From Coraliomargaritaceae bacterium (lineage in GTDB: Bacteria; Verrucomicrobiota; Verrucomicrobiia; Opitutales; Coraliomargaritaceae), in assembly GCA_965657485.1 (NCBI GenBank), contig CBFHPB010000004.1, forward strand, positions 1,947-65,946: a DNA stretch of 64,000 nucleotides, written 5' to 3'. Shown piece by piece: positions 19,948-64,000 of the stretch; positions within the stretch are counted from its first letter, which is position 1, and every line of letters begins with the position of its first letter. A program made the translations under genes and the position numbers. The notes under the pieces were generated by a model, which was given only the letters and a program-made list of their open reading frames with translations, did no database searches and was not told the origin of the DNA.

Positions 19948-20013
19948 TCAGCGCAATCCCAGCCACGTTTTCTAGCGAAATTTCAATCAAGAGATAAAGC
20001 GCCGCAAATTCCT

Positions 20014-20754: not shown

Positions 20755-20809
20755 GCTTCGCACATCCACCGACACACTCCACAGTATCAACATCTCCATA
20801 AACCCAGTC

Positions 20810-22354: not shown

Positions 22355-26389
<4,035 letters not shown>

Positions 26390-34597: not shown

Positions 34598-34598
34598 G

Positions 34599-37668: not shown

Positions 37669-37673
37669 ATCAA

Positions 37674-49248: not shown

Positions 49249-49590
49249 ATGCGATGGTTTCAAGCGAAAGGCCGTCTAGCTCAAACTGGACGGCCTTTTT
49301 GCGGGAAACATGCCTGCTTAGATCTACTTGCTGTTCCAGTTGTTGATCGTTGCCCCGATTTATGGATTTGTGATGATTGTATCCATAACGGTAGCAAGGC
49401 AGCCCTATCAGGTGATCTTTACCGTATGCGTTGGCACTCGCCTCAAGTGGATCAGTCATATAGACAAAGGTATTCTGGCAATTCAGTATTGCTGATGTAT
49501 GCAGTAGCCTGTCTTTTCGGGCCCGCATTTGATTCCATTGTAGGCAAGATTCACTTGCCCAACCAGCCCCATAAGTCACCCTCTACTTAA
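49249..49590 (+). other. Uncertain ORF with a degenerate ClpX-type C4 zinc-finger-like motif
   Basis: RPFCGK...LWICDDCI resembles CxFCGK...YICDEC, with the first Cys missing. Confidence 0.3.
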
Positions 49591-49625: not shown

Positions 49626-51107
49626 ATGAAAAAAAACCTCCCCATCTTAAATCGGCGTCAATTTCTCAAGACATCGGCTGCATTCAGTGCTTTCACAATT
49701 GTCCCTTCCTATGTTGTACTGGGAAATAAATCCACGACAGGCACCGCACCCAGCGAAAGAGTTAACATAGCCTCAATCGGAATCGGCAATCGTGGAGGAG
49801 GTGTACTCCAGTCGATGTATAGCACTGGCCTGTGCAATATTGTTGCACTGTGCGACATCGACATGGGCTCTCCTCACACTCATAAAGGCCGCTACCGTTT
49901 CGGCCTCACCGATAAGAATCCAGGTCCGCAAAATGGTAAGAATATCGAGCGCGCACCCAACAAAGCGCGAGGTTTCACTGATTTCCGCAAGATGTTTGAT
50001 GAGATGTCCGATGAGATTGATGCGGTTATTGTTTGTACGCCGGACCACTCTCACTTTGCAGCCTCCATGCTGGCGATGTCCCTCGGTAAACACGTCTATG
50101 TCGAAAAGCCACTTGCGCACACATTCGGGCAAGCCGCTCGCATGATTGATCTCGCCAAACGTTCAGGGGTATCCACGCAGATGGGCAATCAGGGACACTC
50201 CGGTGCAAATTACTTTCAGTTTAAGGCGTGGACCGAAGCTGGAGTCATCTCGGATGTAACTCGCATCAAGTCCTACATGAATAGTCCGCGTCGCTGGCAC
50301 GGTTGGGGGCAAGACACGACAGGTTACCCTGCAGATCCGAAACCAGACTACATTGATTGGGAACAATGGCACGATACCATAGCCGCTAAAATACCGTTCA
50401 GTAAGAGGATGCACCCCGCTGAATGGCGCAGTTGGTATACGACTGGAAGTGGAGCCTTTGGAGATTGGGGCCCACATATTTTGGACACGTGTCACAGATT
50501 TTTGAAGCTCGGCTTACCACATACAATCACTGCTGACATGCTTGAAGGTGCCAACGACTTTGTCTACCCTCAGGCTTCGACCATTCGCTTCAATTTCGCT
50601 GAACGAGGTCCCGGCCTGCCCGCTTGCGAGGTGACTTGGCAGGACGGCATTAACAATAAACCTGTCCTTGAAGAGAAATACTTTAACAAAGAAGAAGATA
50701 AAGCGTCTGGAATATCAAAACTAGTCACGCCAAAGCTCGGTGGGGCAGGAAAAATTATTTATGCCAAGGATACAGTGTTTCAGGGCGCTTCACATTCAAG
50801 CGTACTCACAATGCTTCCGAAAGAGAAGTATTTGGATATGCGTCGATCTTTACCGAAATTCTCTCAAAAGAATACAAATCACTCTGAGAACTTCCTACTA
50901 AGTTGCAAAGGCGAGGAAGCGTCTCGCTCTCCTTTTCACATTAGTGGCGAACTCTGCCAGGTGTTCAACCTTGGAATGATCGCGCAACGTCTTGGAGGTG
51001 AGCTTAAATTTGACACCAAGACTCAGACTATCACCAACAACAATGCAGCGCAGGCGCTCCTCGACCCAGCACCACGCAAGGGATGGGAAGAGTTCTATAA
51101 AATGTAA
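49626..51107 (+). CDS. Tat-exported Gfo/Idh/MocA oxidoreductase
   Basis: NRRQFLK signal; IASIGIGNRG, TPDHSH, VYVEKPL, FGDWGPHILD. Confidence 0.9.
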   Translation: MKKNLPILNRRQFLKTSAAFSAFTIVPSYVVLGNKSTTGTAPSERVNIASIGIGNRGGGVLQSMYSTGLCNIVALCDIDMGSPHTHKGRYRFGLTDKNPGPQNGKNIERAPNKARGFTDFRKMFDEMSDEIDAVIVCTPDHSHFAASMLAMSLGKHVYVEKPLAHTFGQAARMIDLAKRSGVSTQMGNQGHSGANYFQFKAWTEAGVISDVTRIKSYMNSPRRWHGWGQDTTGYPADPKPDYIDWEQWHDTIAAKIPFSKRMHPAEWRSWYTTGSGAFGDWGPHILDTCHRFLKLGLPHTITADMLEGANDFVYPQASTIRFNFAERGPGLPACEVTWQDGINNKPVLEEKYFNKEEDKASGISKLVTPKLGGAGKIIYAKDTVFQGASHSSVLTMLPKEKYLDMRRSLPKFSQKNTNHSENFLLSCKGEEASRSPFHISGELCQVFNLGMIAQRLGGELKFDTKTQTITNNNAAQALLDPAPRKGWEEFYKM

Positions 51108-51126
51108 AACATGAGTCTTTTTGATT

Positions 51127-52449
51127 ATGAATTTATTACGTTATTCCCTACTCGCGACCTTCTCGGTTTGTCTCTGCTCTGCTAACCAAGTCTCGGACAG
51201 TCAGCAAAAATGGGTTAAGCACTACGCAAAGCAAAAGAATATTGTGCCCCCCACTGAAGCACTCATTCAATCGGATGCCGAACCCGATTTCCGCGAAGGC
51301 TTCGTTTCACTTTACAACGGTAAGGACCTCTCAGGTTGGACACCACTAGGCGGCCACTGCACCTTTGAGGCCTCCGGCGATTCTATCGTCGGAACTTGTG
51401 TGCCGGGTTCGCCCAGCACATATCTCTCTACAGACAGAAATGACTATACCGACTTCATCTTCACTGCTGAAGTAAAATGGGAAGTCGATGGCAATAGCGG
51501 TATCATGTTTCGTGCATCTAGCCGTAAAGGGAGTAGTGGAAACGAAATTGTTTACGGCCCACAATGTGAGATGGAAGGCTTCTCACAGGATCGTGGCTGG
51601 TCTGGTGGTATTTATGGGCAATCGGCAGGAGCTTGGTTCTACCCGCTGTGGCTGGATGCCCACGAGGAAGCGCGCAAGGCGCTGAAGAAAGATCAGTGGA
51701 ATCGAATTACGATTCAAGCGATCGGTAAAGACATAAAGACTTGGATCAATGGCGTGCCCGCTGCCCACTGGATCGACGAGGAATTCGGAGAGGGATTTTT
51801 TAGCCTACAAGTGCATTCCGGTAAGCAGGGCAAAATTCATTTCAGAAATATTAAGGTAAAAGAGATCGATGCAGGCTATGAAGACCTATTCGCAAGTGGT
51901 GACTTTTCCAAATGGACAACAGTAGACGGCTATCCGGTGACTCGATGGACAATAGAAAAAGGCGTTGTCGAACGCCCAAAAATCAATTTCGGTGACACAT
52001 TCCCTGGCTCAATCATCACGAAAGCAGATTATAAAGATTTCGATCTCAAATTTGAATGGAAGATTAGCAAGGGTGGCAATTCTGGCGTGAAATATCGTAC
52101 CGATGGCCATCTAGGCCTAGAGTATCAAATTCTCGACGATGGAGTTCATAGAGATATCAATCTGTCCGCGGGTATCTACGCACTGGTTTCAGCTAGAGAC
52201 GACAAGCCTTACAACCCTGGCGGACAATGGAACTCAGGTCGTATTATGGTGAAAGGTGATCGCGTTGAGCACTACATTAATGGAGAGAAAGTAGCCGAAG
52301 TATTAATCGGTAGCGAGGACTGGGTCGAACGTTTCAAAAAGAGCAAATATAAGAAGCACGAAGGCTTCGGCACATGGACCGGACCGATCTACTTACAGGA
52401 TCATAGCGATCCGGTTGCCTTTCGTAACGTTCGCATAAAGGAGCTGTAA
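51127..52449 (+). CDS. Secreted tandem DUF1080 protein (two domains)
   Basis: Signal peptide; domain 1 LYNGKDLSGW..GNSGIMFR..FRNIKVK; domain 2 GGNSGVKYR..EYQILDD..LQDHSDPVAFRNVRIKEL. Confidence 0.9.
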   Translation: MNLLRYSLLATFSVCLCSANQVSDSQQKWVKHYAKQKNIVPPTEALIQSDAEPDFREGFVSLYNGKDLSGWTPLGGHCTFEASGDSIVGTCVPGSPSTYLSTDRNDYTDFIFTAEVKWEVDGNSGIMFRASSRKGSSGNEIVYGPQCEMEGFSQDRGWSGGIYGQSAGAWFYPLWLDAHEEARKALKKDQWNRITIQAIGKDIKTWINGVPAAHWIDEEFGEGFFSLQVHSGKQGKIHFRNIKVKEIDAGYEDLFASGDFSKWTTVDGYPVTRWTIEKGVVERPKINFGDTFPGSIITKADYKDFDLKFEWKISKGGNSGVKYRTDGHLGLEYQILDDGVHRDINLSAGIYALVSARDDKPYNPGGQWNSGRIMVKGDRVEHYINGEKVAEVLIGSEDWVERFKKSKYKKHEGFGTWTGPIYLQDHSDPVAFRNVRIKEL

Positions 52450-52488
52450 GCTTTTACCATTAATTTCCCCTCACCTTACTGTCGTTAA

Positions 52489-54117
52489 ATGAGTCAGCAA
52501 AACCTCGACAAATTACTACTAGAAGCCGAAAATAGAGGTTGCACAGGAAAGTTACTAACTTACGCACGCCTATCCGGCCCCGGTTGGGTGCAAGCCGCTG
52601 TCACACTCGGAGGGGGGTCACTCGTAGGGGCACTATACCTAGGCGTCATCGGTGGCTATCAATTCATGTGGCTTCAGCCCCTTGCAATGCTTTGCGGGGT
52701 CATCATGCTTTCTGCTATTTCTTTCGTAACACTCTCATCCGATGAGAGGCCATTTATTATCGTAAAGAAGAACATCTCTCCAACACTGGCATGGGGTTGG
52801 CTCGTAGCCACGGTCATAGCAAACATAGTCTTTTGCTCCGCCCAGTTCGCGCTGGGCACCGATGCGGCACAAAACAACCTTAGCATCCTGCCTAGTTTAG
52901 AGCAGCCATACTTGATAACGGCAGTATTTGCGATTGGTAGCCTTGGCCTACTCTGGCTATCTAGGCAAGGAGGTGCAGCTTCGAAGTTAATTGATAATGT
53001 TTTAAAGGCACTTGTGGCAGTCGTTGTATGCGCGTTCATGGGTGTTGTCGTCGTGCTCGCCTCAAAAGGTGCCATCGAATGGGGAGCTCTATTCAAAGGA
53101 CTCATCCCCGATTTTAGCGCCCTCTTCAAACCTACCAGCACCTACAGTGATGCCATCGCGGCGACCGGGAGCAGCTCGGAATTTTGGACTACATACATCG
53201 CAAACAATCAGCGTAATGTAATCATCGGCGCCTTCGGCTCGGCAGTTGGCATCAACATGACCTTTCTGCTGCCCTACAGCCTCAAGGCAAAGGGTTGGGG
53301 CAAACGACATCTCACACTCTCTCGCTACGACCTGTTCCTGGGGCTTTTTGTGCCATTCATACTAGCCACTTCGTTCTTGGTGATAGCGACCTCATCACAG
53401 TTTCATGCACGCGCGAACGGCGTTCACTCTGAAGCAGCCTATCAAAAGGTAATCGACTCACGACTAGCTTCCACTCATGTCGACTATGCGAGTTTACCAG
53501 ACGACGAGAAAATTCTTCTTAGAGAGGCACTGCCACAAGCTGACCAGGACATGGGCGTCATGCTAGCGAAACGAAATGCCAAAGATCTTGCTAGTTCACT
53601 TGAACCTTTCTTAGGCAAAAATGCCCAGCTCATCTTCGGCGTAGGCGTGCTTGCGATGGCGCTTAGCACAATGATCGTCCATATGGTGATGAATGGCTAT
53701 GCCATTTCAGAGGCATTTGGTAAGCCTGGCGCTAAAGGTATCTTTATGATGGGAGCGGCCATGCCCGCGCTCACTGGGTTCCTTTCCCCGATTCTTTGGA
53801 GCGGTCAGACAAAAACCGCTCTGGTAGTTCCCGCAGCAGTCATCGCGACAACCCTACTCCCAATTGCTTACGTCATCTTCATACTTTTGATGAATTCGAA
53901 GAAAGCCCTTGGTCCTGAGCTACCGAAGAAGCGTGGTCTGATTAATGCACTGATGCTACTGGCAACAGCTGTCGCATCTTTCGCCTCGGTTTGGAGTCTC
54001 GTAGGCAAAGCTTCTACAGGCGGTACAACTGGCATTCAAGGCATCGTTGGCCTCATCATGCTTCCGGTATTACTGCTCGTCGGCATGCTAGGATTCCTCA
54101 AGCGCAACCGAGCCTAA
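52489..54117 (+). CDS. Nramp-fold membrane transporter lacking the DPGN metal motif
   Basis: GPGWVQAAVTLGGGSLVGALYLGVIGGYQFMW aligns without gaps to Nramp TM1; about 11 hydrophobic segments. Confidence 0.75.
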   Translation: MSQQNLDKLLLEAENRGCTGKLLTYARLSGPGWVQAAVTLGGGSLVGALYLGVIGGYQFMWLQPLAMLCGVIMLSAISFVTLSSDERPFIIVKKNISPTLAWGWLVATVIANIVFCSAQFALGTDAAQNNLSILPSLEQPYLITAVFAIGSLGLLWLSRQGGAASKLIDNVLKALVAVVVCAFMGVVVVLASKGAIEWGALFKGLIPDFSALFKPTSTYSDAIAATGSSSEFWTTYIANNQRNVIIGAFGSAVGINMTFLLPYSLKAKGWGKRHLTLSRYDLFLGLFVPFILATSFLVIATSSQFHARANGVHSEAAYQKVIDSRLASTHVDYASLPDDEKILLREALPQADQDMGVMLAKRNAKDLASSLEPFLGKNAQLIFGVGVLAMALSTMIVHMVMNGYAISEAFGKPGAKGIFMMGAAMPALTGFLSPILWSGQTKTALVVPAAVIATTLLPIAYVIFILLMNSKKALGPELPKKRGLINALMLLATAVASFASVWSLVGKASTGGTTGIQGIVGLIMLPVLLLVGMLGFLKRNRA

Positions 54118-54139
54118 TACTTATGTGCAAATACAAAAT

Positions 54140-55186
54140 ATGAAATTTGGAATTATAGGAACCGGCATGATTGGCGGTTTTCACGCAAAAGCAATTGCAG
54201 CGATGGAAGGCGGCACACTCGGAGGCGTTGCTAATAGAGTATTTGAACGCTCACAGGCATTCGCGGATCAGTACAACACTCGTGCTTACGAGTCTGTCGA
54301 TGCGATGCTCACCGATCCGGAAATAGATATTGTTACGATCGGTACACCTTCCGGCGCGCACTTGGAACCAGCCATGGCTGCTATCGAAGCGGGCAAGCAC
54401 GTCGTCATTGAAAAGCCACTGGAAATTACGACCGAACGCATCGATCAGATGGTTGATGCTGCAAAAGCAAAAGGCGTGACCATCGCGGCGGTTCTCAATC
54501 GTCGTTTTCACCCGGGAATGGACGCTTTCAAAAAGGCGGCCGACGCGGGTCGTTTTGGCAAGCTAACCTCTGCCTCGGCTTATGTTAAGTGGTATCGAGA
54601 CCAAGCCTATTATAATTCAGCTGGTTGGCGTGGTACTTGGGCACTCGATGGGGGCGGCGCTCTCATGAATCAGTCGATTCACACGATCGATGCACTACTT
54701 TACCTCGCTGGGCCGGTTAAGTCCGTCCAAGCCAACACTGCCTGTCTCGCTCATACCGATATCGAAGTCGAAGACATCGCTGTAGCCATTATCGAGTTCG
54801 AAAATGGTGCAAGAGGCGTCATTGAAGGCAGCACCTGCACTTGGTCCAAGGATGGCCACCCTTCACGCGTGCAACTCGCTGGCACCGAGGGTTCCGTATT
54901 TCTTGCCGATGAAGCCTTCGAAATCTGGGATTTCATGAATGAGAACGATGAAGACGAACAAGTCCGGGCTCAATTTATGAAAGGTGCTGAAGCTGGACTG
55001 GGAGCGAACGACCCTAGCGCGATCAATTTCTATCAGCATCAGCGCAATTTTGAGGAAGTGGTTAACGCCATCAACGAGGGTCGGGAACCTAACACCAATG
55101 CGGCTGAAGCACGAAAAAGCGTTGAATTGATTCAAGCAATTTACACATCTGCCAAGAATGACGGCCAAAAGGTAACGCTGAGCTAG
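54140..55186 (+). CDS. Cytoplasmic Gfo/Idh/MocA oxidoreductase
   Basis: FGIIGTGMIG, TPSGAH, VVIEKPL, WRGTWALDGGGALMNQSIHTID. Confidence 0.92.
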   Translation: MKFGIIGTGMIGGFHAKAIAAMEGGTLGGVANRVFERSQAFADQYNTRAYESVDAMLTDPEIDIVTIGTPSGAHLEPAMAAIEAGKHVVIEKPLEITTERIDQMVDAAKAKGVTIAAVLNRRFHPGMDAFKKAADAGRFGKLTSASAYVKWYRDQAYYNSAGWRGTWALDGGGALMNQSIHTIDALLYLAGPVKSVQANTACLAHTDIEVEDIAVAIIEFENGARGVIEGSTCTWSKDGHPSRVQLAGTEGSVFLADEAFEIWDFMNENDEDEQVRAQFMKGAEAGLGANDPSAINFYQHQRNFEEVVNAINEGREPNTNAAEARKSVELIQAIYTSAKNDGQKVTLS

Positions 55187-55232
55187 ACACGTGTTGCTGA
55201 ATCGAACTATATAAAGGTCCCTATATTCTACT

Positions 55233-56123
55233 ATGATATTATCCGGATTTACCGATGAAGCGGGTCAAGACCTGACTTCACAGATAAAAGCCACGCATGA
55301 GCTTGGCTGGAAGCACCTATCTGCGCGTGGAGTTAACGGCAAAAATCTACATGACTTGCCGGATGCCGAGTTTGAATCCGTCGCCGAGCAGTTGGATGCT
55401 GCCAGCATACAAGTCGTTGAGTTCGGATCTCTGATCGGTAGCTGGTCCAAGCCCATTGATTCCGACTTTGATCTTACAATTGCTGAAATCAACAGGGCCA
55501 TTCCTCGAATGCAGCGCCTTGGCACTAAAATGATCCGTATTATGTCTTACGGGCAGAAGCCTTGGGGAGAAGATCAGCAAGAAGGTGAACGCTTTCGCCG
55601 TATACGAGAGATCGTCGCCCGATTTGCCGAAGCGGGCCTATCTGCAATACATGAAAACTGCATGAATTGGGGCGGTTTTTCATCTGAGCACACACTTCGA
55701 CTGATTGACGAAGTGCCGGGCCTCAAGCTGATCTTTGACACGGGTAATCCGGTTTTTCAGCGTGACCGTTCGAAACCCGAACCCTACCCATGGCAGGATC
55801 CACTCGAGTTTTACAACGCTGTTAAAGAGCACGTTGTTCACGTCCATATCAAAGACTGCCTAAAGCCTGTCGATGGAAATGACGAACCCGAGCAGTACAC
55901 GCTTCCAGGCGATGGCCAGGCGCGCTTGCCGAAGATCCTCTCTGCTCTTCATGCCGATGGATATGATGGTGCCTTTGCAATTGAGCCACACGTAGCCACA
56001 GTTTTTCACTCGAGTGATACATCCTCCACCGATGAGGAGCTCTGCTATCGCTCATACGTAGAATACGGTAAGGTCTTCGAAAGCATTCTAGCAGATCATT
56101 TCGCCAGCCAGATTTCAGCATAG
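55233..56123 (+). CDS. Sugar phosphate isomerase/epimerase family (TIM barrel)
   Basis: SGFTDEAG, HENC, IFDTGNP, HVHIKD, AIEPH. Confidence 0.88.
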   Translation: MILSGFTDEAGQDLTSQIKATHELGWKHLSARGVNGKNLHDLPDAEFESVAEQLDAASIQVVEFGSLIGSWSKPIDSDFDLTIAEINRAIPRMQRLGTKMIRIMSYGQKPWGEDQQEGERFRRIREIVARFAEAGLSAIHENCMNWGGFSSEHTLRLIDEVPGLKLIFDTGNPVFQRDRSKPEPYPWQDPLEFYNAVKEHVVHVHIKDCLKPVDGNDEPEQYTLPGDGQARLPKILSALHADGYDGAFAIEPHVATVFHSSDTSSTDEELCYRSYVEYGKVFESILADHFASQISA

Positions 56124-56197
56124 CGCGCGATTTGCTAAGTTTCGCGCTACGAATTGGATCATTGCAGACTTCGCGGAACACGCTTCTATAGGGGCTG

Positions 56198-57700: not shown

Positions 57701-58491
57701 GCAACGAGTTCAAATTTCAGCATGAAGCGATGAATACGACCTTCAGCTTTCGGATTGTCCATGAGGATGAAAAGGAAGCCAGGTCGGCCTTCTCGTCTGC
57801 AATCGAACTCATTGAGAAACTCGAGAACTTGCTGAGTCGTTACATTCCCGGGAGTGACGTATGGCAACTCAATCACATGCAGGCGGGCCAATCGCTTTTC
57901 ATCGATGATCATACCTACGCCTGTCTGCGCCAGGCGGTGGAAATGCATTCGCTGAGCGGTGGCCTGTTCGATGTCTCTCTAGGTCGTCAGATCGAGCATC
58001 TTAAATCACAATCGGACGCCCCTGCTCCTGGTATCGAAGGCTCCTTGAATATCGATCCTGACAAACCGGCAGTTCACTGTCTCGAACCGGGCCGTGAGGT
58101 TGACTTGGGTGGGATTGGTAAAGGTTACGCCCTGGATTGCGTCGCAAAGGAAATGTCCGAATGGGGCATTCAATGTGCTCTAATTTCGTCGGGTGCTAGC
58201 ACGCATTTAGCCTTTGGGGATAAGAGTTGGCAGATTCAATTAGTCGGAGCGTTGACTGAAAGAACGATCAACCTTCAAAACATGGCTCTCAGTGTATCCG
58301 GTGCGGACGTTCAAGGGACGCACATTGTATCTCCCGCAGATACATCAAATGCAGCTCCTAATGGCCCGAAATTATGGGTACTCCACCCGAAAGCCTCTTA
58401 TGCAGATGCTTGGTCGACTGCCTGCTTTTTGATGGACGATCAACAGTTGGATCAAATCAGCGATCAATTGAGCATCATTAAAGACTGCTGA
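57697..58491 (+). CDS. apbE: FAD:protein FMN transferase (ApbE family)
   Basis: EAMNTTF, LSRYIPGSDVWQLN, SGGLFDVS, DLGGIGKGYALD, HIVSP, ADAWSTA; ATGA overlap with the upstream GT-C gene. Confidence 0.9.
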   Translation: MSNEFKFQHEAMNTTFSFRIVHEDEKEARSAFSSAIELIEKLENLLSRYIPGSDVWQLNHMQAGQSLFIDDHTYACLRQAVEMHSLSGGLFDVSLGRQIEHLKSQSDAPAPGIEGSLNIDPDKPAVHCLEPGREVDLGGIGKGYALDCVAKEMSEWGIQCALISSGASTHLAFGDKSWQIQLVGALTERTINLQNMALSVSGADVQGTHIVSPADTSNAAPNGPKLWVLHPKASYADAWSTACFLMDDQQLDQISDQLSIIKDC

Positions 58492-58510
58492 TTCACTCTA
58501 ATGCGATGAA

Positions 58511-59227
58511 CTACTGCAAAGGCCTAGTGATTGGCTCAAGCAGCTGAACGGCCGCTTCGTTTTCATACTTGAGAGCCACATCGAGTGCGCGTCCTCCATC
58601 CTTTGCGATTACATTTGGATCTACTTCAGCGTCTATTAGCAGCTGTATCATATCCGCGCTCCCGCTTGAGGCGGCTTCGTGAAGGACCGAGCCGCCCAGT
58701 TTGCTAATCACATGCAAATCGGCGCCTGCCTCGATGAGAGCCTTTGCGGCATCAATCCGATCTTTTGCAGCCGCCCAATGCAGAGGCGCCCAACCGACGC
58801 TATCGAGTTCATTTAAGCCCGCACCCTTTTCGGCTAACAGAGGAATCAACTCCGGCAAATTCCTGTCAACTGCCAAGTGCGTGGCTGTTCGAGAGCTGGA
58901 GTCCGTAGCACAGACATCGGCACCTTTGAGGATCAGTAACTTCGCAATCTCGACCTTTTTTCGTAGTATGGCCGATAGCAACGGCGGCATATCAGGCCGA
59001 CTGCCCCTGTTAACCAAATCGGGATTCGACTCGATTAGTGCTTGAACTGCAGAAAAGTCCCCCCTTGCAACTGCCTTATCAATGGTAATCTTGTCGATAA
59101 CCACACGAACCGCATCTTCTTCGATTGAAGCCAAGTCATCAGACTTCTGCTCGCAACCTGAAACGATCAAGGCGAGCAGAAGACTGAAACTAAAGAGATG
59201 GCTTTTGTTAGTGCGCACCCTCACCAA
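58511..59227 (-). CDS. Ankyrin-repeat lipoprotein
   Basis: Lipobox IVSGC; ankyrin repeats TATHLAVD, APLHWAA, SVLHEAA; start probably GTG at 59224 or 59218, overlapping the MFS stop. Confidence 0.85.
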   Translation of the reverse strand: MVRVRTNKSHLFSFSLLLALIVSGCEQKSDDLASIEEDAVRVVIDKITIDKAVARGDFSAVQALIESNPDLVNRGSRPDMPPLLSAILRKKVEIAKLLILKGADVCATDSSSRTATHLAVDRNLPELIPLLAEKGAGLNELDSVGWAPLHWAAAKDRIDAAKALIEAGADLHVISKLGGSVLHEAASSGSADMIQLLIDAEVDPNVIAKDGGRALDVALKYENEAAVQLLEPITRPLQ

Positions 59228-60767
59228 GAACTTTTGGCTTATAGCCTCCCTTGCTCTTGAAGTAGAGAATTAGACCGATGTAACACACCAGTAGGAAAGC
59301 AGGAAAGAATGCCATTTTAGCCAAGGCACCCTGGGACTCGCGCTCAACAATACCAGCAATAGTCGCTTGTTGTCCTTCAGGAAGTGCTGCGACAGCATCG
59401 GCATCGAGAGAATGGTAGTTTCCAAGGACATACTCCTTTTCAACAGTAACCTGTTGGTGGATCGTTGGAATTTCCTCTTCGACAGAAGAACTAACTGAAC
59501 TGTCCTGCAGGAACCCGATGAACGGGAACCCGAGAATTCCAACCGCCAGCATACCAATGCCAGCAATAGCGTTGAGTGTCAGCGCCCCTCCTTTAGGTGT
59601 TTGTTCAGAGACGACCCCAAGCATGGTTGGCCAGAAATAGGTTTTGCCAACGCCATAGAGTGTGGCCGCGGCAAAGATCATCGCCAGTCCGGTTGAGAAG
59701 GACAAAAGGTAAAGACCAATGATAGCGAGAACCGAGCAGATAGCCAGCAACCCAAGGGGCTTAAAGAATGCAATCACTGGTCCGGCGAAGAAGCGGAGCA
59801 CCATCATGATAGCTGAAGTGTAAACAAGCACCCAAGCGGCGTTGTAACCAGCTTCGTGCATCGGTTTTTCCATGAGGCCAGAGATCCAGCCGTCTGTGCC
59901 GATTTCAGTTGTAGCCAATGGCATCATCATAATCACTAAGATGATCAACAGCCAGTTACCAACTGAGCGGCAATAGAGGCCGTATCCTGCGACTGTAACA
60001 ATTGTCAGCCCCCATGTTAGAGGTGTCGACCACCAGCTAAAGACTTGCTCCAACTGGACGAAGATCAAGGCGAAGGCGATTAAAGCACTGACAACACCAA
60101 ACTCAGCCAGCATGTCGCGGTAGCTTGTGCCCGCTGCCACACGTTCGTTGACTGGGAATTTAGCCTTAGCAAGCATGACGACATAAACAATCGCAGGAAG
60201 AAAGATCAGACCGATAAAAATGCGCCAGTCACTGCCAGCCACACCAGTTAGCATAATAGTTAAGACACCACCGAGCACCAAGCCACCCGGCCAGCCGGCA
60301 TGGAGAATATTCAGCCATTTAGACTTTTCATCCCTGAAGAGTGTCGCAACCACTGGATTGATAAATGCCTCAACAGTGCCGTTGCCTAAGCCAAGGACGA
60401 CTGAGCCCCAATACAAAAGTGTCCAAGCCTTCGCCTGGGCTGCAGCTAGATCAGTCACGTCACCTGTGATTGTACTATATGCCATCATGGCCATCGCTCC
60501 AAACACTGCATAACAAGCGAAACTGAAATACATCGCAAACTTATAGCCGACGCGATCGATGATTAAACTGAACAAGATAATACTGATCGCAAAAGGCCAA
60601 ATGCCCGCACCGAAGAGCGCACCACTCTGAGTATTATCTAGTCCGAATTGCTCGGGCCACATACCACCATTAATTAGAATGGCACGAATAATAAATGCCA
60701 TTGAGGTTGTGATAAGGGCTATAAATGAGCCCCAGAATACGATTTGGTCGTTTTTGCTGTGTTTCAA
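59208..60767 (-). CDS. MFS transporter (sugar permease-like)
   Basis: SLIIDRVGYK, GNGTVEAFINPVVATLF, WLNILHAGWPGG, YGVGKTYFWPTMLG; 12+ TM segments; TTG start. Confidence 0.88.
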   Translation of the reverse strand: MKHSKNDQIVFWGSFIALITTSMAFIIRAILINGGMWPEQFGLDNTQSGALFGAGIWPFAISIILFSLIIDRVGYKFAMYFSFACYAVFGAMAMMAYSTITGDVTDLAAAQAKAWTLLYWGSVVLGLGNGTVEAFINPVVATLFRDEKSKWLNILHAGWPGGLVLGGVLTIMLTGVAGSDWRIFIGLIFLPAIVYVVMLAKAKFPVNERVAAGTSYRDMLAEFGVVSALIAFALIFVQLEQVFSWWSTPLTWGLTIVTVAGYGLYCRSVGNWLLIILVIMMMPLATTEIGTDGWISGLMEKPMHEAGYNAAWVLVYTSAIMMVLRFFAGPVIAFFKPLGLLAICSVLAIIGLYLLSFSTGLAMIFAAATLYGVGKTYFWPTMLGVVSEQTPKGGALTLNAIAGIGMLAVGILGFPFIGFLQDSSVSSSVEEEIPTIHQQVTVEKEYVLGNYHSLDADAVAALPEGQQATIAGIVERESQGALAKMAFFPAFLLVCYIGLILYFKSKGGYKPKVLGEGAH

Positions 60768-60788
60768 AACTGGTGCGGGGTTAGTTGT

Positions 60789-61613
60789 TTATGAGGTAGT
60801 TGTTTGTAAGGTCTTGTTCTTACGACGTTGCGTTGGGGATGCGGAAATATCACTGAAACGCCGACGATAACGCAATGGCGTAATCTTAAGTTCCAGGCGA
60901 AATGCACGAGTCATATTGGTTTGGTCGTTAAAGCCGCAATAAATTGCAATCTTGGAAAGCTGGTTCTTTGTCTCGCGAAGTAATTTACAGGCAGCATTTA
61001 AGCGTGTCCTGCGTAAATACATCAGTGGCGTTAATCCGAAGGTTTTGCGGAAGAGTCTCTCCTGGGAACTGACCGATATACCACCAACTTTTGCCATATC
61101 GGAAACGGATAACTTCTCGCGGAAGTTCGACTTCACGAAGTTCACAATTTCATACATCTCAGGGTGCCCCGAATAGACTGAGTCCGAATCTTGTATAATC
61201 CGAGCCACGCCGGCTAAGCCAATCACCTTTCCATCTAGCCCCCATAGCGGTATTTTAGTCGTGCAGAGCCAGTCAAGAGAGCCGTCACGGGAAGATACCA
61301 ACTCAATCTTATCACGTAGAGGCCTGCTTGAAGCAATCACGGCTTGGTCGTCCGCGTAAAACGCATCGGCCATGAAATCAGGGCTATAATCGTAGTCCGT
61401 CTTGCCGATCATCGCGTCAACTGACGGCTCACCGAGTGCGTTCGCAAAACTCTGATTGCCCCCCGTAAAGCGGCTGTTCACATCCTTGACAAAATAGTGA
61501 ACTCCGGGGATGCTATCAAATAACTCAAAGAGTAACTGTCCCGGTTGAAGCGAACTCAGGAAATCCTCACGGTTGCAAGGTGGAAGGTTTTTGAACTTGA
61601 GGCTAAAGCTCAT
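60789..61613 (-). CDS. AraC family transcriptional regulator with N-terminal PAS domain
   Basis: YFVKDVNSRF..GKTDYDY..D..V PAS_4 pattern; C-terminal ERLFRKTFGLTP and IAIYCGFNDQTNMTRAFR double HTH. Confidence 0.92.
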   Translation of the reverse strand: MSFSLKFKNLPPCNREDFLSSLQPGQLLFELFDSIPGVHYFVKDVNSRFTGGNQSFANALGEPSVDAMIGKTDYDYSPDFMADAFYADDQAVIASSRPLRDKIELVSSRDGSLDWLCTTKIPLWGLDGKVIGLAGVARIIQDSDSVYSGHPEMYEIVNFVKSNFREKLSVSDMAKVGGISVSSQERLFRKTFGLTPLMYLRRTRLNAACKLLRETKNQLSKIAIYCGFNDQTNMTRAFRLELKITPLRYRRRFSDISASPTQRRKNKTLQTTTS

Positions 61614-61889
61614 TCATTGAAATTCTCCACCGGCTGACGCAATTTGACAAGCAATATTTGGGATGCTGGAAATGATTCCTTATCGACCAGATACAGAAAT
61701 TTAACCTTTCTAAGTCGCATGCAACTGAAACGCAGTAGGTTGCACAATGCATCTACCCGGCAGAGTGGGCAAATATTTTTGAGAAATCTTCAACCACAGG
61801 AAATTTCTTATTGCTCTATTCTCTGCGATTTGCATATAATTGGATTTCCTTGGACTGTCCCGAAACAATTATAATATACGTATATTCCC

Positions 61890-62405
61890 ATGATTGCTGT
61901 CACAAAAAACGACGAGCTAGGCCTGAGCTTGGCCATGTTAACCCTTCGTATTTGGCTATCCGTACGCGCCATACAAACTGGAATCGAAAAGTTTGCCGGA
62001 ATCAAATCGATCGATACTGCGGTCACCATCGATGGAGCACCGAATAGCTATGGATTAACAGAGAGCGGCACAGAGAAGGCCTATGCTTTCAGTAATTACA
62101 GTGGTGTCCCTGCCCCGCTTCAGGACAAGTTCGCGAGCGAACCTCTGATTCCTTCATGGGGTCTCAGCATCTACGACACAGTCATAGGTCCGGCGCTTAT
62201 CATCATGGGCCTGACTCTCTTGCTGGGGCTCGCGACTCGCATCTCTCTTTTTGCCATGGGCTTACTCTATACAAGTCTCACCTTCGGTCTAATTCTGATT
62301 AAGCAGGACGCAGGCGTTGCCTGGCTTGGCATACATATTATTATGATTACTGCCGCTCTGGCACTTGCGAAATACAATCGCTTCGCCATCCTCAAGAAGT
62401 GGTAA
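61890..62405 (+). CDS. DoxX family membrane protein
   Basis: LRIWL..GIEKF, LLLGLATR; four hydrophobic segments. Confidence 0.75.
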   Translation: MIAVTKNDELGLSLAMLTLRIWLSVRAIQTGIEKFAGIKSIDTAVTIDGAPNSYGLTESGTEKAYAFSNYSGVPAPLQDKFASEPLIPSWGLSIYDTVIGPALIIMGLTLLLGLATRISLFAMGLLYTSLTFGLILIKQDAGVAWLGIHIIMITAALALAKYNRFAILKKW

Positions 62406-62430
62406 TTAAGCAATAAATAGATTCTTTATT

Positions 62431-63810
62431 ATGGAGCCCCCATTTCCCCCACTCTCTCGGAGAGATTTCATAACCAAGAGCGCAATAGGGACAGGCCTAG
62501 CACTTGGTGCTCCGAGTATTTTAAAAGCAAAAGAGCCCGGCGCATCTGGCGATGATATTCGAGTCGGTTTCATCGGTTGTGGTAAACAACATGAAGTGCT
62601 TTTCAACGCCATGGTCAATATTCCCGGCATCCACTACGTGGCTGCTGCGGATATTATGCGTGACCGCTTAGGGCGCACTTTCGGCGCTATCCGTGGGCGC
62701 TTCGACACTCAGATCAAGCGCTACTTCGATGTTGAAGAGATGCTGGAAAAAGAAGAACTCGATGCTGTCTTCATCTCTACGCCTGATTTTTGGCACGCAC
62801 CACATACCATTATGGCTTTGGAAGCTGGATGCCATGTGTATTGCGAGAAGATGATGTCCAATACCATCGAAGGTGCCCGCAGCATGGTCGCGGCTATGGA
62901 TCGCACCGGCAAACTCTGCCAGATCGGCCATCAGCGACGCAGCAATCCACGCTATCTTTTTACGCTCAACGAGTTGATCAAGAAGCATGAAATTTGCGGA
63001 CAGATTATCAATATCAACGGACAATGGAATCGTGCCTTGAGTTCATCTCAAGACATCGTCTCCAAACCATCCATCCTCCCAAAGAAGGATATCCTGCTCA
63101 AGGCTGGTTTCAACTCGGGCACAGATAAAGATCTAAGCGAAGAAGAACTTCGTCATCGCTTCCTGAACTGGCGCTTCTACACAGCTCTTTCCGGCGGTCC
63201 GATCTCCGACTTGGGTGCACACCAAATCGACATCTTCAACTGGTATCTCGGCGCAAACCCGAAATCCGTCATGGCATCGGGCGGCCGAAGTTACTTCAAG
63301 GAGCGCGAGCACTTCGACAACGTCATGTGCGTATTCGATTACGATACATCACAGGGCAACGCTCGCGCATTTTATCAAGTCCTCACGACGACTAGTGCTG
63401 GCGGCGGATACTATGAGTCCTTTATGGGGACTGAAGGCACGATCGAGATCTCCGAACGTGAAGCTTATACCAACATTTACAAAGAGTCTGGTGCTGACGG
63501 AGCGAAATGGAACGAGCTCGTTTCTCGCGGCATTTTAAAGAAAGAAGCTGCCGGTGTGGCTGCTGGTGGTTCCGATGCGATTGCATCTTATGAGTCCGCT
63601 CCACCCGACAAGTACGCCCTTCCGGGCGGGCTTAATAAGCCACCTCACCAGCCACATATTGAAAACTTTCTCAACGCAATCCGTGGCGATGCAGAATTGA
63701 CTTGCGATGCACGTCACGCACTTGAGTCTGAAGCACCGATCTATTGGGTAAACCCAGCTGCAGAGAGCAAAGAAATTATCAAATTTACAGACGAACACCT
63801 ACACACATAA
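62431..63810 (+). CDS. Tat-exported Gfo/Idh/MocA oxidoreductase
   Basis: SRRDFI signal; VGFIGCG, STPDFWHA, VYCEKMM, QIGHQRRS, DLGAHQID. Confidence 0.9.
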   Translation: MEPPFPPLSRRDFITKSAIGTGLALGAPSILKAKEPGASGDDIRVGFIGCGKQHEVLFNAMVNIPGIHYVAAADIMRDRLGRTFGAIRGRFDTQIKRYFDVEEMLEKEELDAVFISTPDFWHAPHTIMALEAGCHVYCEKMMSNTIEGARSMVAAMDRTGKLCQIGHQRRSNPRYLFTLNELIKKHEICGQIININGQWNRALSSSQDIVSKPSILPKKDILLKAGFNSGTDKDLSEEELRHRFLNWRFYTALSGGPISDLGAHQIDIFNWYLGANPKSVMASGGRSYFKEREHFDNVMCVFDYDTSQGNARAFYQVLTTTSAGGGYYESFMGTEGTIEISEREAYTNIYKESGADGAKWNELVSRGILKKEAAGVAAGGSDAIASYESAPPDKYALPGGLNKPPHQPHIENFLNAIRGDAELTCDARHALESEAPIYWVNPAAESKEIIKFTDEHLHT

Positions 63811-63814
63811 GAAA

Positions 63815-64000
63815 ATGAGACACATCGCATACCTTACAATTGCATCAAGCGCACTTTTCTTCACCGCATGTGGTGATAAAAGCGGATCTTCGGATGAAGT
63901 GCCCGCTACAGCTGACACACCCGCTTCTGCGCCATCCGGCGGGGGCATGGCTCTCACCACAGAGATCCCGCCCGAGCTTATTGAAGGCACACCTCAACCG
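63815..64000 (+). CDS. Lipoprotein of unknown function, N-terminal part (runs out of window)
   Basis: MRHIAYLTIASSALFFTAC lipobox, A/P/S/T-rich tether, then TTEIPPELIEGTPQP; frame open to position 64000. Confidence 0.75.
   Translation, partial: MRHIAYLTIASSALFFTACGDKSGSSDEVPATADTPASAPSGGGMALTTEIPPELIEGTPQP

Follow-up and report, generated by a model that had tools for sequence, protein, structure and literature searches.

The region at positions 49626-64000 of the window (the whole stretch of DNA that was analysed, 64 kb of a marine Verrucomicrobiota genome) brings together genes for sugar oxidoreductases, a GT-C glycosyltransferase, an ApbE-like protein and a DoxX-like protein, and the question raised by this locus is whether these genes form one envelope system, as the first-pass annotation had supposed. 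All of the genes that it had listed were located by Pfam and NCBIfam profiles and by inspection of the sequence, and its account of the gene content was borne out, except that the name DoxX holds only at the level of the DoxX/MauE group and by matches below threshold. Its statement that no characterised pathway has such a combination also stands; no described pathway combining GT-C, ApbE, DoxX-like and sugar oxidoreductase genes was found in the literature. The comparison set consisted of 165 related loci. Four modules make up the region, shuffled into a supercluster rather than forming one indivisible system: a keto-glycoside-type catabolic cassette (module A, 49626-56123), a GT-C protein with a short ApbE-fold gene (module B, 56198-58491), an ankyrin lipoprotein with an MFS transporter and a PAS-AraC regulator (module C, 58511-61613), and a DoxX/MauE-like membrane protein with a Tat-exported Gfo/Idh/MocA enzyme and a lipoprotein (module D, 61890-64000). 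The idea of a single system survives for the link between modules B and D and, mainly within Opitutales, for module C, whereas module A is rarely linked to module B.

Catabolic genes and the background of the window

Module A is encoded on the forward strand. Its first gene, TatGfo1 (49626-51107, in a reading frame that opens at 49590), encodes a Tat-exported Gfo/Idh/MocA oxidoreductase with Pfam GFO_IDH_MocA, C2 and TAT_signal matches and the twin-arginine motif RRQFLK; the likely start is the Met at 49626, immediately 5′ of LNRRQFLK. The protein matches the NCBIfam glycoside 3-dehydrogenase family BT_2158_fam at 262 bits, which is below the cut-off of 750. It is followed by a secreted protein with two DUF1080 (3-keto-disaccharide hydrolase, 3keto-disac_hyd) domains (51121-52449; PF06439, 238.9 bits in two stretches) and by a divergent Nramp-fold transporter of 542 aa (52489-54117; Pfam Nramp, 74.5 bits). 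The transporter scores 29.5 bits against NCBIfam Nramp_1 (cut-off 50), has by inspection SGPGW where the canonical DPGN metal motif is expected, and found no match at E<=0.01 in a PDB sequence search. The module ends with a cytoplasmic Gfo/Idh/MocA oxidoreductase that lacks a signal peptide and resembles inositol 2-dehydrogenase (54125-55186; Pfam N, C and C3 domains; TIGR04380, 141.6 bits, below the cut-off) and a xylose-isomerase-like TIM-barrel protein (55233-56123; AP_endonuc_2, 92.9 bits).

The window contains a total of six Gfo/Idh/MocA, three DUF1080 and three TIM-barrel genes. Because three, two and two of these, respectively, lie beyond 49626-64000, clustering at the family level is uninformative, and only linkage at the ortholog level counts. 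At least two other keto-glycoside cassettes accompany module A in the window, and the cassette of the same logic at 32827-38909 lacks GT-C, ApbE, DoxX and modules B and D altogether. Orthologs of module A occur near GT-C only in a few close relatives, and their linkage to GT-C/ApbE is not far above chance. Module A is most likely an ordinary keto-glycoside catabolic cassette, in which periplasmic oxidation would be followed by DUF1080 cleavage, uptake, and cytoplasmic reduction and isomerisation, and which may have come to sit between housekeeping genes and module B in this lineage. The density of such genes also favours an explanation without any functional coupling, in which GT2, GT-C and the ApbE-like protein would form a unit for envelope glycosylation in general, and module D and the cassettes would serve unrelated sugar metabolism. 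Their adjacency would then come from ancestral gene order and from the very dense packing of these genomes with Gfo/Idh/MocA genes. We consider this explanation somewhat unlikely, for reasons given with the linkage data below.

The GT-C protein and its ApbE-like neighbour

The GT-C-fold membrane protein (56198-57700, forward strand) has a PMT_2 match and belongs to the TIGR03663/Agl23 family (146 bits, above the cut-off of 126). Its AF2 model (pLDDT 82.8) confirms the GT-C fold, with ALG12, ArnT, STT3/AglB/PglB and Pmt4 as the top PDB fold matches. Eleven TM helices are predicted, with a C-terminal alpha/beta domain on the periplasmic side, and the motifs HADEATGAR and HGP of the first outer loop are invariant in the alignment columns. 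The catalytic-type DE loop and the C-terminal domain both lie on the periplasmic face. A GT2 gene stands divergently upstream of GT-C in 55 of 74 loci; its best NCBIfam matches are weak and are to polyprenyl- or dolichyl-phosphate sugar synthases, namely AglJ (a haloarchaeal dolichyl-phosphate hexose transferase), ArnC and PpgS. No GT2 gene is present in the 64-kb window or in the near relatives L087-L089. Module B appears to be a unit for glycosylation by way of a lipid carrier, like archaeal Agl22/Agl23; its GT-C is of the Agl23 family, and in most relatives the gene divergently upstream is a small GT2. Agl23 has been described as working with Agl22 on Dol-P-hexose in extracellular glycosylation, and a flippase role, not that of a transferase, has been reported for it (PMC11182771).

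The pair GT-C-ApbE, usually with GT2, is a unit of its own. It lies amid unrelated genes in most genomes, such as those of C. akajimensis, Lentimonas and L166, and in L166 the same panE-nadB-panC-aminotransferase genes that are found in the window directly abut GT-C. Housekeeping genes surround module B in L004, L166 and L167, a setting that agrees with an absence of coupling to sugar oxidation.

The second gene of the module (57697-58491, forward strand) encodes a minimal ApbE-fold protein of 264 aa (Pfam ApbE, 117.9 bits), and its model (pLDDT 91.8) superposes on solved ApbE/Ftp structures with a TM of 0.82. The two genes share 4 nt (ATGA), which hold the start of this gene and the stop of GT-C. 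It comes directly after GT-C in 78 of 78 loci, and in most of them the two codons overlap. The protein retains the FAD/Mg catalytic residues: the counterparts of Ftp Y/N55, H256, D284 and T288 are kept as Y/F49, H209, D/E237 and T241. The earlier argument had taken as a premise that ApbE flavinylates extracytoplasmic proteins. This premise is not directly applicable here, because a signal peptide or lipobox is absent from every one of 81 orthologs; nor does any neighbour family, TatGfo2, the lipoprotein and the 171-aa protein included, have a conserved flavinylation motif ([ST]GA[ST]). The most likely site of action of the ApbE-like protein is the cytoplasmic face, where it would use FAD and serve as a partner of GT-C. 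The intact fold and catalytic residues, together with the public annotation as FAD:protein FMN transferase, would also suit a housekeeping flavin transferase for NQR/RNF-type complexes that is translationally coupled to GT-C by happenstance. However, the known sites of NqrB/C and RnfD/G receive their flavin outside the cytoplasm, from an ApbE that is a secreted lipoprotein (PMC12052999), in contrast with the orthologs described here. Moreover, solved ApbEs are approximately 50 residues longer than this protein, its score against the ApbE equivalog is 28.5 bits (cut-off 498), and a housekeeping enzyme would have no reason to follow GT-C so invariably. We consider this explanation very improbable.

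The TatGfo2 gene set and its regulator

Module D, on the forward strand, begins with a 171-aa membrane protein (61890-62405) that has approximately four TM helices and a conserved loop of approximately 65 aa, identified by hydropathy and sub-threshold Pfam matches as distantly DoxX/MauE-like. It scores 16.8 bits against Pfam DoxX, below the cut-off of 23.6, and among 26 orthologs DoxX was matched by 16 and MauE by 11, in all cases below threshold; the DoxX call would therefore reach only to the level of the DoxX/MauE group. This gene stands immediately 5′ of TatGfo2 in 69 of 69 loci. TatGfo2 (62431-63810) is a Tat-exported Gfo/Idh/MocA oxidoreductase by Pfam, with the motif SRRDFI, and its closest solved relatives are the glycoside 3-oxidoreductase DgpA, aldose-aldose oxidoreductase and AFR. 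Its conservation is very strong, with many residues at >=95% across 81 sequences. The last gene (63815-64000), cut by the end of the window, is the 5′ part of a lipoprotein gene encoding the lipobox FTAC and a Ser/Thr/Pro-rich linker, and its full-length orthologs, which are 232-242 aa long, have an F5/8 type C (discoidin)/NedA-like galactose-binding domain. After GT-C/ApbE, these three genes are a second invariant set, in which the Tat-exported enzyme is a sugar oxidoreductase of the NAD(P) type. Unrelated genes follow module D in L096 and L099, the nearest relatives, as would be expected if the modules were not coupled.

Module C is encoded on the reverse strand. The ankyrin-repeat lipoprotein (58511-59227; lipobox VSGC; Pfam Ank_2 and related families) has orthologs near GT-C/ApbE or Tat-Gfo in many loci, and in L169 it is fused to a DUF1080 domain. 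The highly conserved MFS transporter of 519 aa (59208-60767; Pfam MFS_1), which found no match in NCBIfam and PDB searches and was not assigned to a subfamily, adjoins GT-C-ApbE in L075, L077 and L085 (Chthoniobacterales/Terrimicrobiaceae-type loci). The PAS-AraC transcription regulator (60789-61613; Pfam PAS_4 and HTH_18) is transcribed divergently from the 171-aa gene in the window, and its ortholog-grade matches (>=280 bits) hold the same divergent upstream position in at least 20 loci. The intergenic region between the two genes (61614-61889, read from the sequence), presumed to be a promoter/operator, has no 12-mer in common with the other two upstream regions.

Linkage of module C is mainly confined to Opitutales, where PAS-AraC and MFS are tightly linked to module D. 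This linkage, and the keto-glycoside cassettes found beside module D in the window and in L098, L099, L103, L116 and L026, would suit a membrane-bound periplasmic sugar:quinone oxidoreductase encoded by module D, with module C taking up the product and module B maturing the complex. This catabolic and respiratory explanation is close to the first-pass annotation, which had suggested wiring to the membrane electron chain. The lipoprotein would bind a glycan, the Tat enzyme would oxidise it, and the DoxX/MauE-like protein would pass reducing equivalents to quinone, in line with the quinone or thiol redox reactions to which proteins of the DoxX/MauE group are linked. GT-C would O-glycosylate the lipoprotein linkers in a PMT-like manner; the linkers of both lipoproteins are rich in S/T/P/D/E, and the best fold matches of GT-C include Pmt4. 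Cofactors are inserted into Tat substrates in the cytoplasm, and flavinylation of the Tat substrate before export would account for the missing signal peptide of the ApbE-like protein. Furthermore, it is conceded for periplasmic Tat-exported Gfo enzymes, BT2158 among them, that their electron acceptor has yet to be identified (PMC8121099). However, we consider it unlikely: the DoxX assignment is below threshold, the [ST]GA[ST] motif is not conserved in the candidate targets, the ApbE-like protein strictly tracks GT-C and not the Tat enzyme, and most module B loci lack module D. In addition, the cluster contains no cytochrome, flavin-binding domain or above-threshold DoxX match, and no flavinylation target, cytochrome or riboswitch was found across the related loci.

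Linkage between modules B and D

Whichever gene serves as the anchor, module D adjoins module B in about 30-40% of loci; it lies immediately upstream in about a third of genomes, and these belong to at least two Verrucomicrobiota orders. With GT-C as the anchor, a TatGfo2 ortholog with its 171-aa partner and lipoprotein lies <=5 kb upstream in 17 of 57 loci; with Tat-Gfo as the anchor, GT-C lies <=5 kb downstream in 10 of 33. The chance expectation for two single-copy genes <=10 kb apart in a genome of ~4 Mb is ~0.5%. The linkage of GT-C, apbE and DoxX to oxidoreductases proposed earlier is therefore upheld, far above chance, for TatGfo2 but not for the keto-glycoside cassette. A single gene order is found in 39 of 40 loci that have both, and the gaps are operon-like where GT2 is absent (19-84 bp from lipoprotein to GT-C in L060, L078, L118, L119 and L120).

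These observations count against the explanation without coupling. The linkage is one between orthologs (TatGfo2 matches of 550-950 bits), not between mere members of a family; either anchor reveals it, and it extends to MAGs labelled Planctomycetota. The co-directional gaps suggest shared transcripts in several lineages. The families recurring in at least 10 of 83 GT-C loci are GT-C, ApbE-like, GT2, Tat-Gfo, the lipoprotein, the 171-aa protein and Ank, and no further real gene family reaches this frequency. The genes also stay together despite permutations of their order (the window, L138, L168+L026, L169): in the MAG GCA_039815375.1 (L168+L026), all of the window genes and GT2 are contiguous in a permuted order, and L169 is largely similar. 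Nevertheless, many of the sampled loci come from related lineages, so that the counts overstate independent events and some of the linkage may be synteny by descent. Because module B stands without module D in about 60-70% of loci, any coupling between them is optional.

We tentatively favour, at somewhat less than an even chance, a lipid-carrier glycosylation module coupled to periplasmic sugar oxidation. GT2 would load polyprenyl phosphate with a hexose at the cytoplasmic face, and the Agl23-like GT-C would flip the hexose and/or transfer it, in the periplasm, to an acceptor of the envelope, which could be a lipoprotein linker, LPS or some other glycan. TatGfo2, which the 171-aa protein would tether to the membrane and the sugar-binding lipoprotein would guide, would oxidise, epimerise or trim the same hexose at the membrane surface, for which DprE1/E2 with Emb/Aft and RgtE/RgtA-D with LpxQ offer precedents. 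The PAS-AraC regulator would make module D and the MFS/ankyrin operon inducible. Against this envelope reading, an AraC-type regulator, an MFS transporter and adjacent catabolic cassettes usually mark nutrient catabolism. The proposed chemistry has no step for the ApbE-like partner, and none of the neighbours shows a conserved flavinylation motif; the missing GT2 and the reported flippase role of Agl23 also count against it. In its favour, TatGfo2 (62-83% identity) and MFS (72-87%) are much better conserved than GT-C and the ApbE-like protein (37-60%) within one set of relatives, and this difference fits a conserved endogenous substrate. Only a few metatranscriptome fragments match GT-C, MFS and TatGfo2.

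Gene content and linkage across relatives

The gene content that the first-pass annotation proposed for 49.6-64.0 kb was confirmed by the ORF listing and by profile searches, which together support 13 genes. The plus-strand run at 49626-58491, with intergenic gaps of 7-74 bp, opens with a keto-glycoside-type cassette (module A). It comprises a Tat-signal Gfo/Idh/MocA gene (TatGfo1, 49626-51107; 262 bits against BT_2158_fam, far under the cut-off of 750) and, from profile searches, genes for a tandem DUF1080 protein (51121-52449), a divergent Nramp-fold transporter (52489-54117), a cytoplasmic Gfo enzyme (54125-55186) and a xylose-isomerase-like TIM barrel (55233-56123). The run closes with module B, in which an ApbE-family gene (57697-58491) overlaps by 4 nt the stop of the gene for a GT-C protein (56198-57700). 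Module C lies on the minus strand and contains, again by profile search, an ankyrin lipoprotein (58511-59227), an MFS transporter (59208-60767) and a PAS-AraC regulator (60789-61613). A divergent gap of 276 bp separates the regulator from module D on the plus strand, which consists of a 171-aa membrane protein (61890-62405), a second Tat-signal Gfo identified by profile search (TatGfo2, 62431-63810) and the first 62 codons of a lipoprotein gene, recognized in the sequence, that runs off the window end (63815-64000). The closest homologs of the window genes are found in Opitutales (Verrucomicrobiota), near Lentimonas and Coraliomargarita, and the window sequence occurs in marine metagenomes. 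The 385-bp gap before TatGfo1 contains a 113-aa ORF (49249-49590, plus strand) with no Pfam match, which is probably not a gene.

An alignment of the GT-C protein was scanned against one genome per GTDB species and yielded 80 loci, from Opitutales, Verrucomicrobiales (Akkermansiaceae, Luteolibacter, Haloferula, Prosthecobacter), Chthoniobacterales/Terrimicrobiaceae and a few MAGs labelled Planctomycetota. The six-frame ORFs of these loci and of five further loci were searched with the window proteins as queries, so paralogs of other families are under-reported in the resulting counts. An ApbE-like gene follows GT-C in all 78 loci with room for it. A TatGfo2 ortholog (550-950 bits) lies no more than 5 kb upstream of GT-C in 17 of 57 loci, and within 10 kb on either side in 13 of the 34 loci with full flanks. 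According to an unsupervised clustering of the ORFs, the only real families in at least 10 GT-C loci are GT-C, the ApbE-like protein, a small glycosyltransferase (GT2), Tat-Gfo, the lipoprotein, the 171-aa protein and the ankyrin lipoprotein; all other clusters consist of shadow ORFs on the antisense strand. A metagenome scan anchored on Tat-Gfo added 80 further loci. In these, the 171-aa gene is directly upstream of Tat-Gfo in 69 of 69, a lipoprotein gene comes next in at least 42 of 66 (a lower bound, the query being only 62 aa long), and GT-C is found downstream within 5 kb in 10 of 33 and within 10 kb in 7 of the 17 with full flanks. Because relatives are not independent samples, all of these fractions overstate the number of evolutionary events. 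By our own estimate, the chance that two single-copy genes lie within 10 kb of each other in a genome of ~4 Mb is ~0.5%.

The order 171-aa gene, Tat-Gfo, (lipoprotein), (GT2 reversed), GT-C and ApbE-like gene is kept in 39 of the 40 loci that have both anchor genes. Furthermore, in five loci where GT2 is absent (L060, L078, L118, L119 and L120), the gap between the lipoprotein gene and GT-C is 19-84 bp, so modules D and B there resemble one operon. GT-C with the ApbE-like gene and the 171-aa gene with Tat-Gfo are thus two invariant pairs, and the junction between the two sets is recurrent, ordered and sometimes operon-like. In the MAG GCA_039815375.1, two contigs end in complementary halves of one Nramp-like gene (L168, 1-856; L026, 3-911) and can be joined. 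The joined sequence carries all of the window genes and GT2 contiguously in an order that differs from that of the window, namely Ank, MFS, AraC, TatGfo1, tandem DUF1080, Nramp, cytoplasmic Gfo, TIM barrel, 171-aa, TatGfo2, lipoprotein, GT2, GT-C and ApbE. Another permutation is found in L169, and Coraliomargarita algicola (CP138858.1) carries Ank, Gfo, MFS, 171-aa, TatGfo2, lipoprotein, Gfo, GT2, GT-C, ApbE and AraC genes at a single locus.

The GT-C-ApbE pair also often stands alone, without the other modules. In L166, whose ApbE identity of 59-60% makes it a closer relative, the pair directly follows the panE, nadB, panC and aminotransferase genes that also precede the region in the window; there is no cassette between these genes and GT-C, and modules C and D do not follow. 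The pair stands between feoAB and aconitase in C. akajimensis and between nadA and a helicase in L004. A truncated IS3-type transposase (HTH_21 and rve core, 193 aa; 43784-44365, minus strand) lies just upstream of panE-nadB-panC in the window and is possibly a trace of rearrangement.

The first-pass annotation had proposed that the whole region may be a single periplasmic sugar-redox or glycan-remodelling system wired to the membrane electron chain. What stands of this claim is the ortholog-level linkage of GT-C/ApbE, the DoxX-like protein, Tat-Gfo and the lipoprotein, which is real and, as far as could be found, undescribed: our searches of the literature on TIGR03663, on ApbE with PMT and on DoxX with Gfo/Idh/MocA found nothing relevant. 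The keto-glycoside cassette does not belong to it; this bystander is near GT-C only in L012, L026 and L116. A reading in which the modules share no functional coupling at all, with the solitary GT-C-ApbE pairs on its side and the ordered junction against it, seems to us somewhat unlikely.

The GT-C protein and its ApbE-like partner

The GT-C protein matches TIGR03663 (an NCBIfam family now named after the archaeal Agl23) over residues 12-435 with 146 bits, above the cut-off of 126.25. The description of this family includes an invariant DE dipeptide, an HGP tripeptide and Arg residues near the N-terminus. The corresponding residues D34, E35, H59, G60, P61, R22 and R88 do not vary among 17 sequences and are at least 95% conserved among 81. 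An AF2 model (pLDDT 82.8) has 11 long membrane helices and a C-terminal alpha/beta domain at 397-498, and its best fold matches in the PDB are without exception GT-C enzymes (E 1e-7 to 1e-5): ALG12, ArnT, STT3/AglB/PglB and Pmt4, with Emb and Aft also among the matches. The modelled protein conforms to the GT-C architecture, with a multi-TM N-terminal module, an acidic motif in an outer loop and a putative extracytoplasmic C-terminal domain. In addition, the positive residues fall on the predicted cytoplasmic loops, and the catalytic loop and the C-terminal domain are predicted to face the periplasm. The sequence similarity of solved GT-C proteins to the window protein is undetectable, PDB sequence searches with the GT-C, GT2, MFS and Nramp-like proteins gave no match, and an exact-sequence look-up of the window GT-C returned no record.

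The window lacks GT2, a protein of 250 aa whose gene lies upstream of GT-C and divergent from it in 55 of 74 relatives. Against the Dol-P/Und-P sugar synthases in NCBIfam, GT2 scores just 16-31 bits. In the published account, the TIGR03663 protein Agl23 and the GT2 protein Agl22 act on dolichyl-phosphate hexose for extracellular glycosylation, and Agl23 shows flippase activity in vitro (PMC11182771). The present case resembles the Haloarcula hispanica Agl22/Agl23 pair in that GT-C exceeds the family cut-off and carries the DE and HGP motifs, and in that a small GT2, whose weak best matches are dolichyl- or polyprenyl-phosphate sugar synthases, pairs with it in most relatives. It differs in being bacterial (Verrucomicrobiota), in the lack of GT2 in the window and in the ApbE-like gene that is always attached. 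To our knowledge, bacterial homologs of the archaeal Agl23 are unstudied, and we know of no report of an ApbE-like gene attached to the archaeal pair.

The same division of labour, with synthesis of a polyprenyl-phosphate sugar by a GT2 in the cytoplasm and transfer by a GT-C enzyme outside it, is found in GtrB/GtrC. The GT2/GT-C pairs ArnC/ArnT, RgtE/RgtA-D, Ppm1/Pmt and PpgS/Rv3779 use polyprenyl-phosphate sugars to glycosylate targets in the envelope. Lipid-linked or transferred sugars can also be substrates of oxidoreductases, namely of DprE1/E2 with the mycobacterial Emb/Aft and of LpxQ with RgtE/RgtA-D in Rhizobium. The present set appears to share the logic of all these systems. However, the linked oxidoreductase here belongs to the Tat-exported Gfo/Idh/MocA enzymes and has a DoxX/MauE-like partner, and the ApbE-like subunit has no counterpart there. 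We regard the GT-C/ApbE set as a putative lipid-carrier GT2/GT-C module whose obligatory and facultative partners are new.

Within the region, the ApbE-like protein stands out as the most unusual element. It matches Pfam ApbE with 117.9 bits (gathering score 25.6), and its model (pLDDT 91.8) superposes on 39 solved ApbE/Ftp/FmnB chains with TM scores of 0.79-0.84 (~0.82). Among 81 sequences, H209 and T241 are invariant and position 237 is Asp in 46 and Glu in 35, the counterparts of Ftp H256, T288 and D284, respectively; in the loop DLGxIxKG (DLGGIGKG in the window), D136, G138, K142 and G143 are each present in all 81. Position 49 is Tyr in 43 and Phe in 38, which is the aromatic residue at Ftp position 55 that is decisive for transferase activity. 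The protein therefore shares with the ApbE/Ftp FAD:protein FMN transferases the fold, the metal- and FAD-binding residues and the Tyr/Phe at the activity-deciding position. Unlike mature ApbEs (~310 aa), it has only ~264 aa, at 17-22% identity; it scores 28.5 bits against the equivalog PRK10461, below the cut-off of 498; it is always coupled to a membrane glycosyltransferase; and no FMN_bind-type target or flavinylation motif is nearby. It also has invariant residues of its own (Cys76, Cys128, I99-E100-H101-x-K103 and Pro111/121/124; gene at 57697-58491) that are not known to belong to the canonical ApbE motifs.

An N-terminal lipoprotein signal is typical of extracytoplasmic ApbE proteins, although not universal. 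In the window protein and the sampled orthologs, neither a hydrophobic segment nor a lipobox was seen before the first conserved motif, and in the window and most sampled orthologs the stretch ahead of the AMxT motif amounts to just 10-26 residues, mostly polar; it is longer only where the longest-ORF call extends back into GT-C. The 264-aa protein should therefore be cytoplasmic, and from its residues it looks catalytically competent. In its lack of a signal peptide, it resembles the cytoplasmic ApbE of Klebsiella pneumoniae, which serves a soluble fumarate reductase. Cytoplasmic ApbEs are known solely for soluble targets of the fumarate-reductase type (PMC12052999), and a survey of flavinylation-associated clusters, in which glycosyltransferases are unmentioned, states that the substrates of prevalent ApbEs are still unidentified (PMC8238504). 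The predicted cytoplasmic location makes a housekeeping role for NQR or RNF unlikely. We discarded the possibility of an obvious ApbE substrate among the genes of the cluster, because the canonical flavinylation motif Dxx[ST]GA[ST] is absent from every conserved neighbour family; in none of them is even [ST]GA[ST] conserved.

The invariant outer-loop motif of GT-C, HADEATGAR (residues 32-40), is similar to the ApbE target motif except for an Arg in place of the acceptor residue. We rejected DEATGAR as a flavinylation site on account of this Arg and because the loop is predicted to be periplasmic and the ApbE-like protein cytoplasmic; the "DE" loop of GT-C probably has this likeness by coincidence. 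GT-C and the ApbE-like protein are 37-60% identical to those of relatives (L026, L087, L003 and others), compared with 62-83% for Tat-Gfo and 72-87% for MFS. We considered whether the window pair is a foreign replacement, given ~48% identity to relatives with 80%-identical neighbours, and rejected this explanation. The identity is equally low against all relatives, so the pair simply appears to evolve markedly faster than its neighbours.

The Tat oxidoreductase set and its possible function

The 171-aa protein was named DoxX in the first-pass annotation. A small DoxX/MauE-like protein of about four TM helices is indeed encoded there (hydropathy peaks at 10-28, 97-115, 118-136 and 141-168), but its match to DoxX is weak, with 16.8 bits against a gathering threshold of 23.6 for Pfam PF07681. 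Of 26 orthologs, DoxX is hit by 16 and MauE by 11, in no case above threshold; the best E-value is 0.0021. DoxD/DoxX is a thiosulfate:quinone oxidoreductase, and MauE acts in the maturation of methylamine dehydrogenase and likewise serves a Tat-exported periplasmic enzyme. The 171-aa family is like them in its approximately four helices and in that most orthologs weakly match both Pfam families; it is unlike them in that every member falls under the gathering threshold and in a conserved insert of ~65 residues between TM1 and TM2.

TatGfo2 has only family-level similarity to BT_2158_fam (61 bits, cut-off 750). Its solved relatives include the Zymomonas glucose-fructose oxidoreductase (GFOR), the Caulobacter aldose-aldose oxidoreductase, the glycoside 3-oxidoreductase DgpA and GH109, and two of these Gfo/Idh/MocA enzymes, GFOR and GH109, are exported via Tat with tightly bound NAD(P). 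The likeness is confined to the Rossmann half, and the C-terminal substrate half matches none of them; therefore, dehydrogenase, epimerase and NAD-dependent glycosidase chemistry are all possible. Full-length orthologs of the terminal lipoprotein contain a discoidin domain (F5/8 type C, NedA-like galactose-binding), and unrelated genes follow it in the nearest relatives.

Tat-Gfo is far more conserved than GT-C and has a fixed membrane partner, which favours an endogenous, membrane-proximal substrate. We tentatively prefer a reading, still short of probable, in which lipid-carrier glycosylation is coupled to periplasmic oxidation of the same sugar on such a substrate. GT2 would make a polyprenyl-phosphate hexose, GT-C would flip or transfer the hexose in the periplasm, and the membrane-tethered Tat oxidoreductase, with the sugar-binding lipoprotein, would oxidise, epimerise or trim the same sugar; the PAS-AraC regulator may render the genes of modules D and C inducible. 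The wiring to the electron chain that the first-pass annotation proposed is a hypothesis. The AraC regulator, the MFS transporter and the neighbouring catabolic cassettes favour instead a nutritional role, that is, a catabolic or respiratory function in which module B would be a maturation unit; we judge this role unlikely. A far bolder proposal, which we consider highly improbable, is that the pairing of an ApbE fold with an Agl23-like protein represents new chemistry. A flavin or other dinucleotide-derived phospho-linked group would be loaded in the cytoplasm, cross the membrane and be installed outside, as a covalent cofactor or modified glycan for the Tat-Gfo/DoxX-like/lipoprotein set, with sugar oxidation feeding the quinone pool. 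This would be a GT-C- or lipid-carrier-assisted alternative to secreted ApbE.

Tat-exported Gfo/Idh/MocA enzymes number in the dozens in Verrucomicrobiota and their relatives, and their re-oxidation and substrates are an acknowledged open question even for the Bacteroides BT2158. The present comparison singles out one highly conserved Tat-Gfo that always has a dedicated membrane partner, is usually adjoined by a sugar-binding lipoprotein and repeatedly lies in an apparent operon with a lipid-carrier glycosyltransferase; the five or six genes concerned are a concrete set for testing. A clade of minimal ApbE proteins without signal sequences also emerges, whose sole constant partner is a GT-C membrane protein, a concrete example of the many ApbEs for which flavinylation surveys record no substrate. 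If the modules cooperate, this would be a new periplasmic tailoring of envelope glycans or a new wiring of periplasmic sugar oxidation to the membrane.

Flanking genes, regulatory sequences and further cassettes

In many Opitutales loci, a PAS-AraC ortholog stands upstream of the 171-aa gene in divergent orientation, and the MFS and ankyrin genes then follow the regulator; in L075, L077 and L085, MFS directly adjoins GT-C-ApbE without Tat-Gfo. A scan for sigma-70 promoters and terminators gave the same counts as shuffled sequence, so operon structure was judged by gaps alone. Rfam gave no match in the whole window, hence no FMN or other riboswitch, and no common 12-mer (one mismatch allowed) that could be a shared operator was found upstream of TatGfo1, GT-C and the 171-aa gene. 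The 9-mer ATTTGCWWA occurs at 33748, 56130 and 61828, 40-68 bp upstream of the plus-strand starts of DUF1080, GT-C and the 171-aa gene. We rejected it as evidence because its count equals chance and the pattern was derived from those same regions; as a promoter element ahead of GT-C it is only a hint. In the metatranscriptome X25, just five read-length contigs map to the region, on GT-C, MFS and Tat-Gfo, which is too sparse for co-expression.

Module A (49626-56123) is best read, by analogy, as an ordinary pathway like that of BT2156-2159 and as a bystander of a common kind. As in Bacteroides thetaiotaomicron BT2156-BT2160, a Tat-exported BT2158-like Gfo, a DUF1080 3-keto-glycoside hydrolase (51121-52449), a TIM barrel (55233-56123) and a second Gfo (54125-55186) form one cluster. 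It differs in scores far under the equivalog cut-offs (262 vs 750; 29 vs 650), in its tandem DUF1080, in its atypical Nramp-fold transporter and in a regulator that is not of the SusR type. The route, modelled on the BT2156-2159 pathway (PMC8121099), would comprise periplasmic oxidation, DUF1080 cleavage, uptake, and cytoplasmic reduction and isomerisation. The Nramp-like protein is above the Pfam cut-off (74.5 bits) and below that of NCBIfam (29.5 vs 50), solved Nramps are unmatched, and by eye, without a formal reference alignment, its TM1 reads SGPGW where the metal motif is DPGN.

The window contains two more sets of the same families. A complete cassette at 32827-38909 follows the logic of module A. 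A minus-strand TIM barrel is accompanied there by DUF1080, two Gfo genes (442 and 321 aa), another TIM barrel and an MFS that resembles nucleoside/H+ symporters, and GT-C, ApbE and the DoxX-like 171-aa gene are absent. At 15081-22129, PSCyt2+PSD1 (766 aa), DUF1501, a PSCyt1 "Planctomycete cytochrome c", DUF1080 and a 514-aa Gfo/Idh/MocA stand in a row. Because of these sets, family-level adjacency is cheap, and only ortholog-level conservation is usable evidence. The cytochrome c that adjoins the Gfo/DUF1080 pair in the second set could be a different answer to the question of the electron acceptor. The blocks at 9267-14812 and 22298-26389 are ordinary housekeeping, with arginine biosynthesis (Pfam fits argC, argJ, argB, argD and argF) and purL. 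Lastly, L169 encodes at 12787-14088 a single 433-aa protein in which ankyrin repeats are fused to a DUF1080/3-keto-disaccharide hydrolase domain, and this fusion links the ankyrin lipoprotein family to DUF1080 enzymes.
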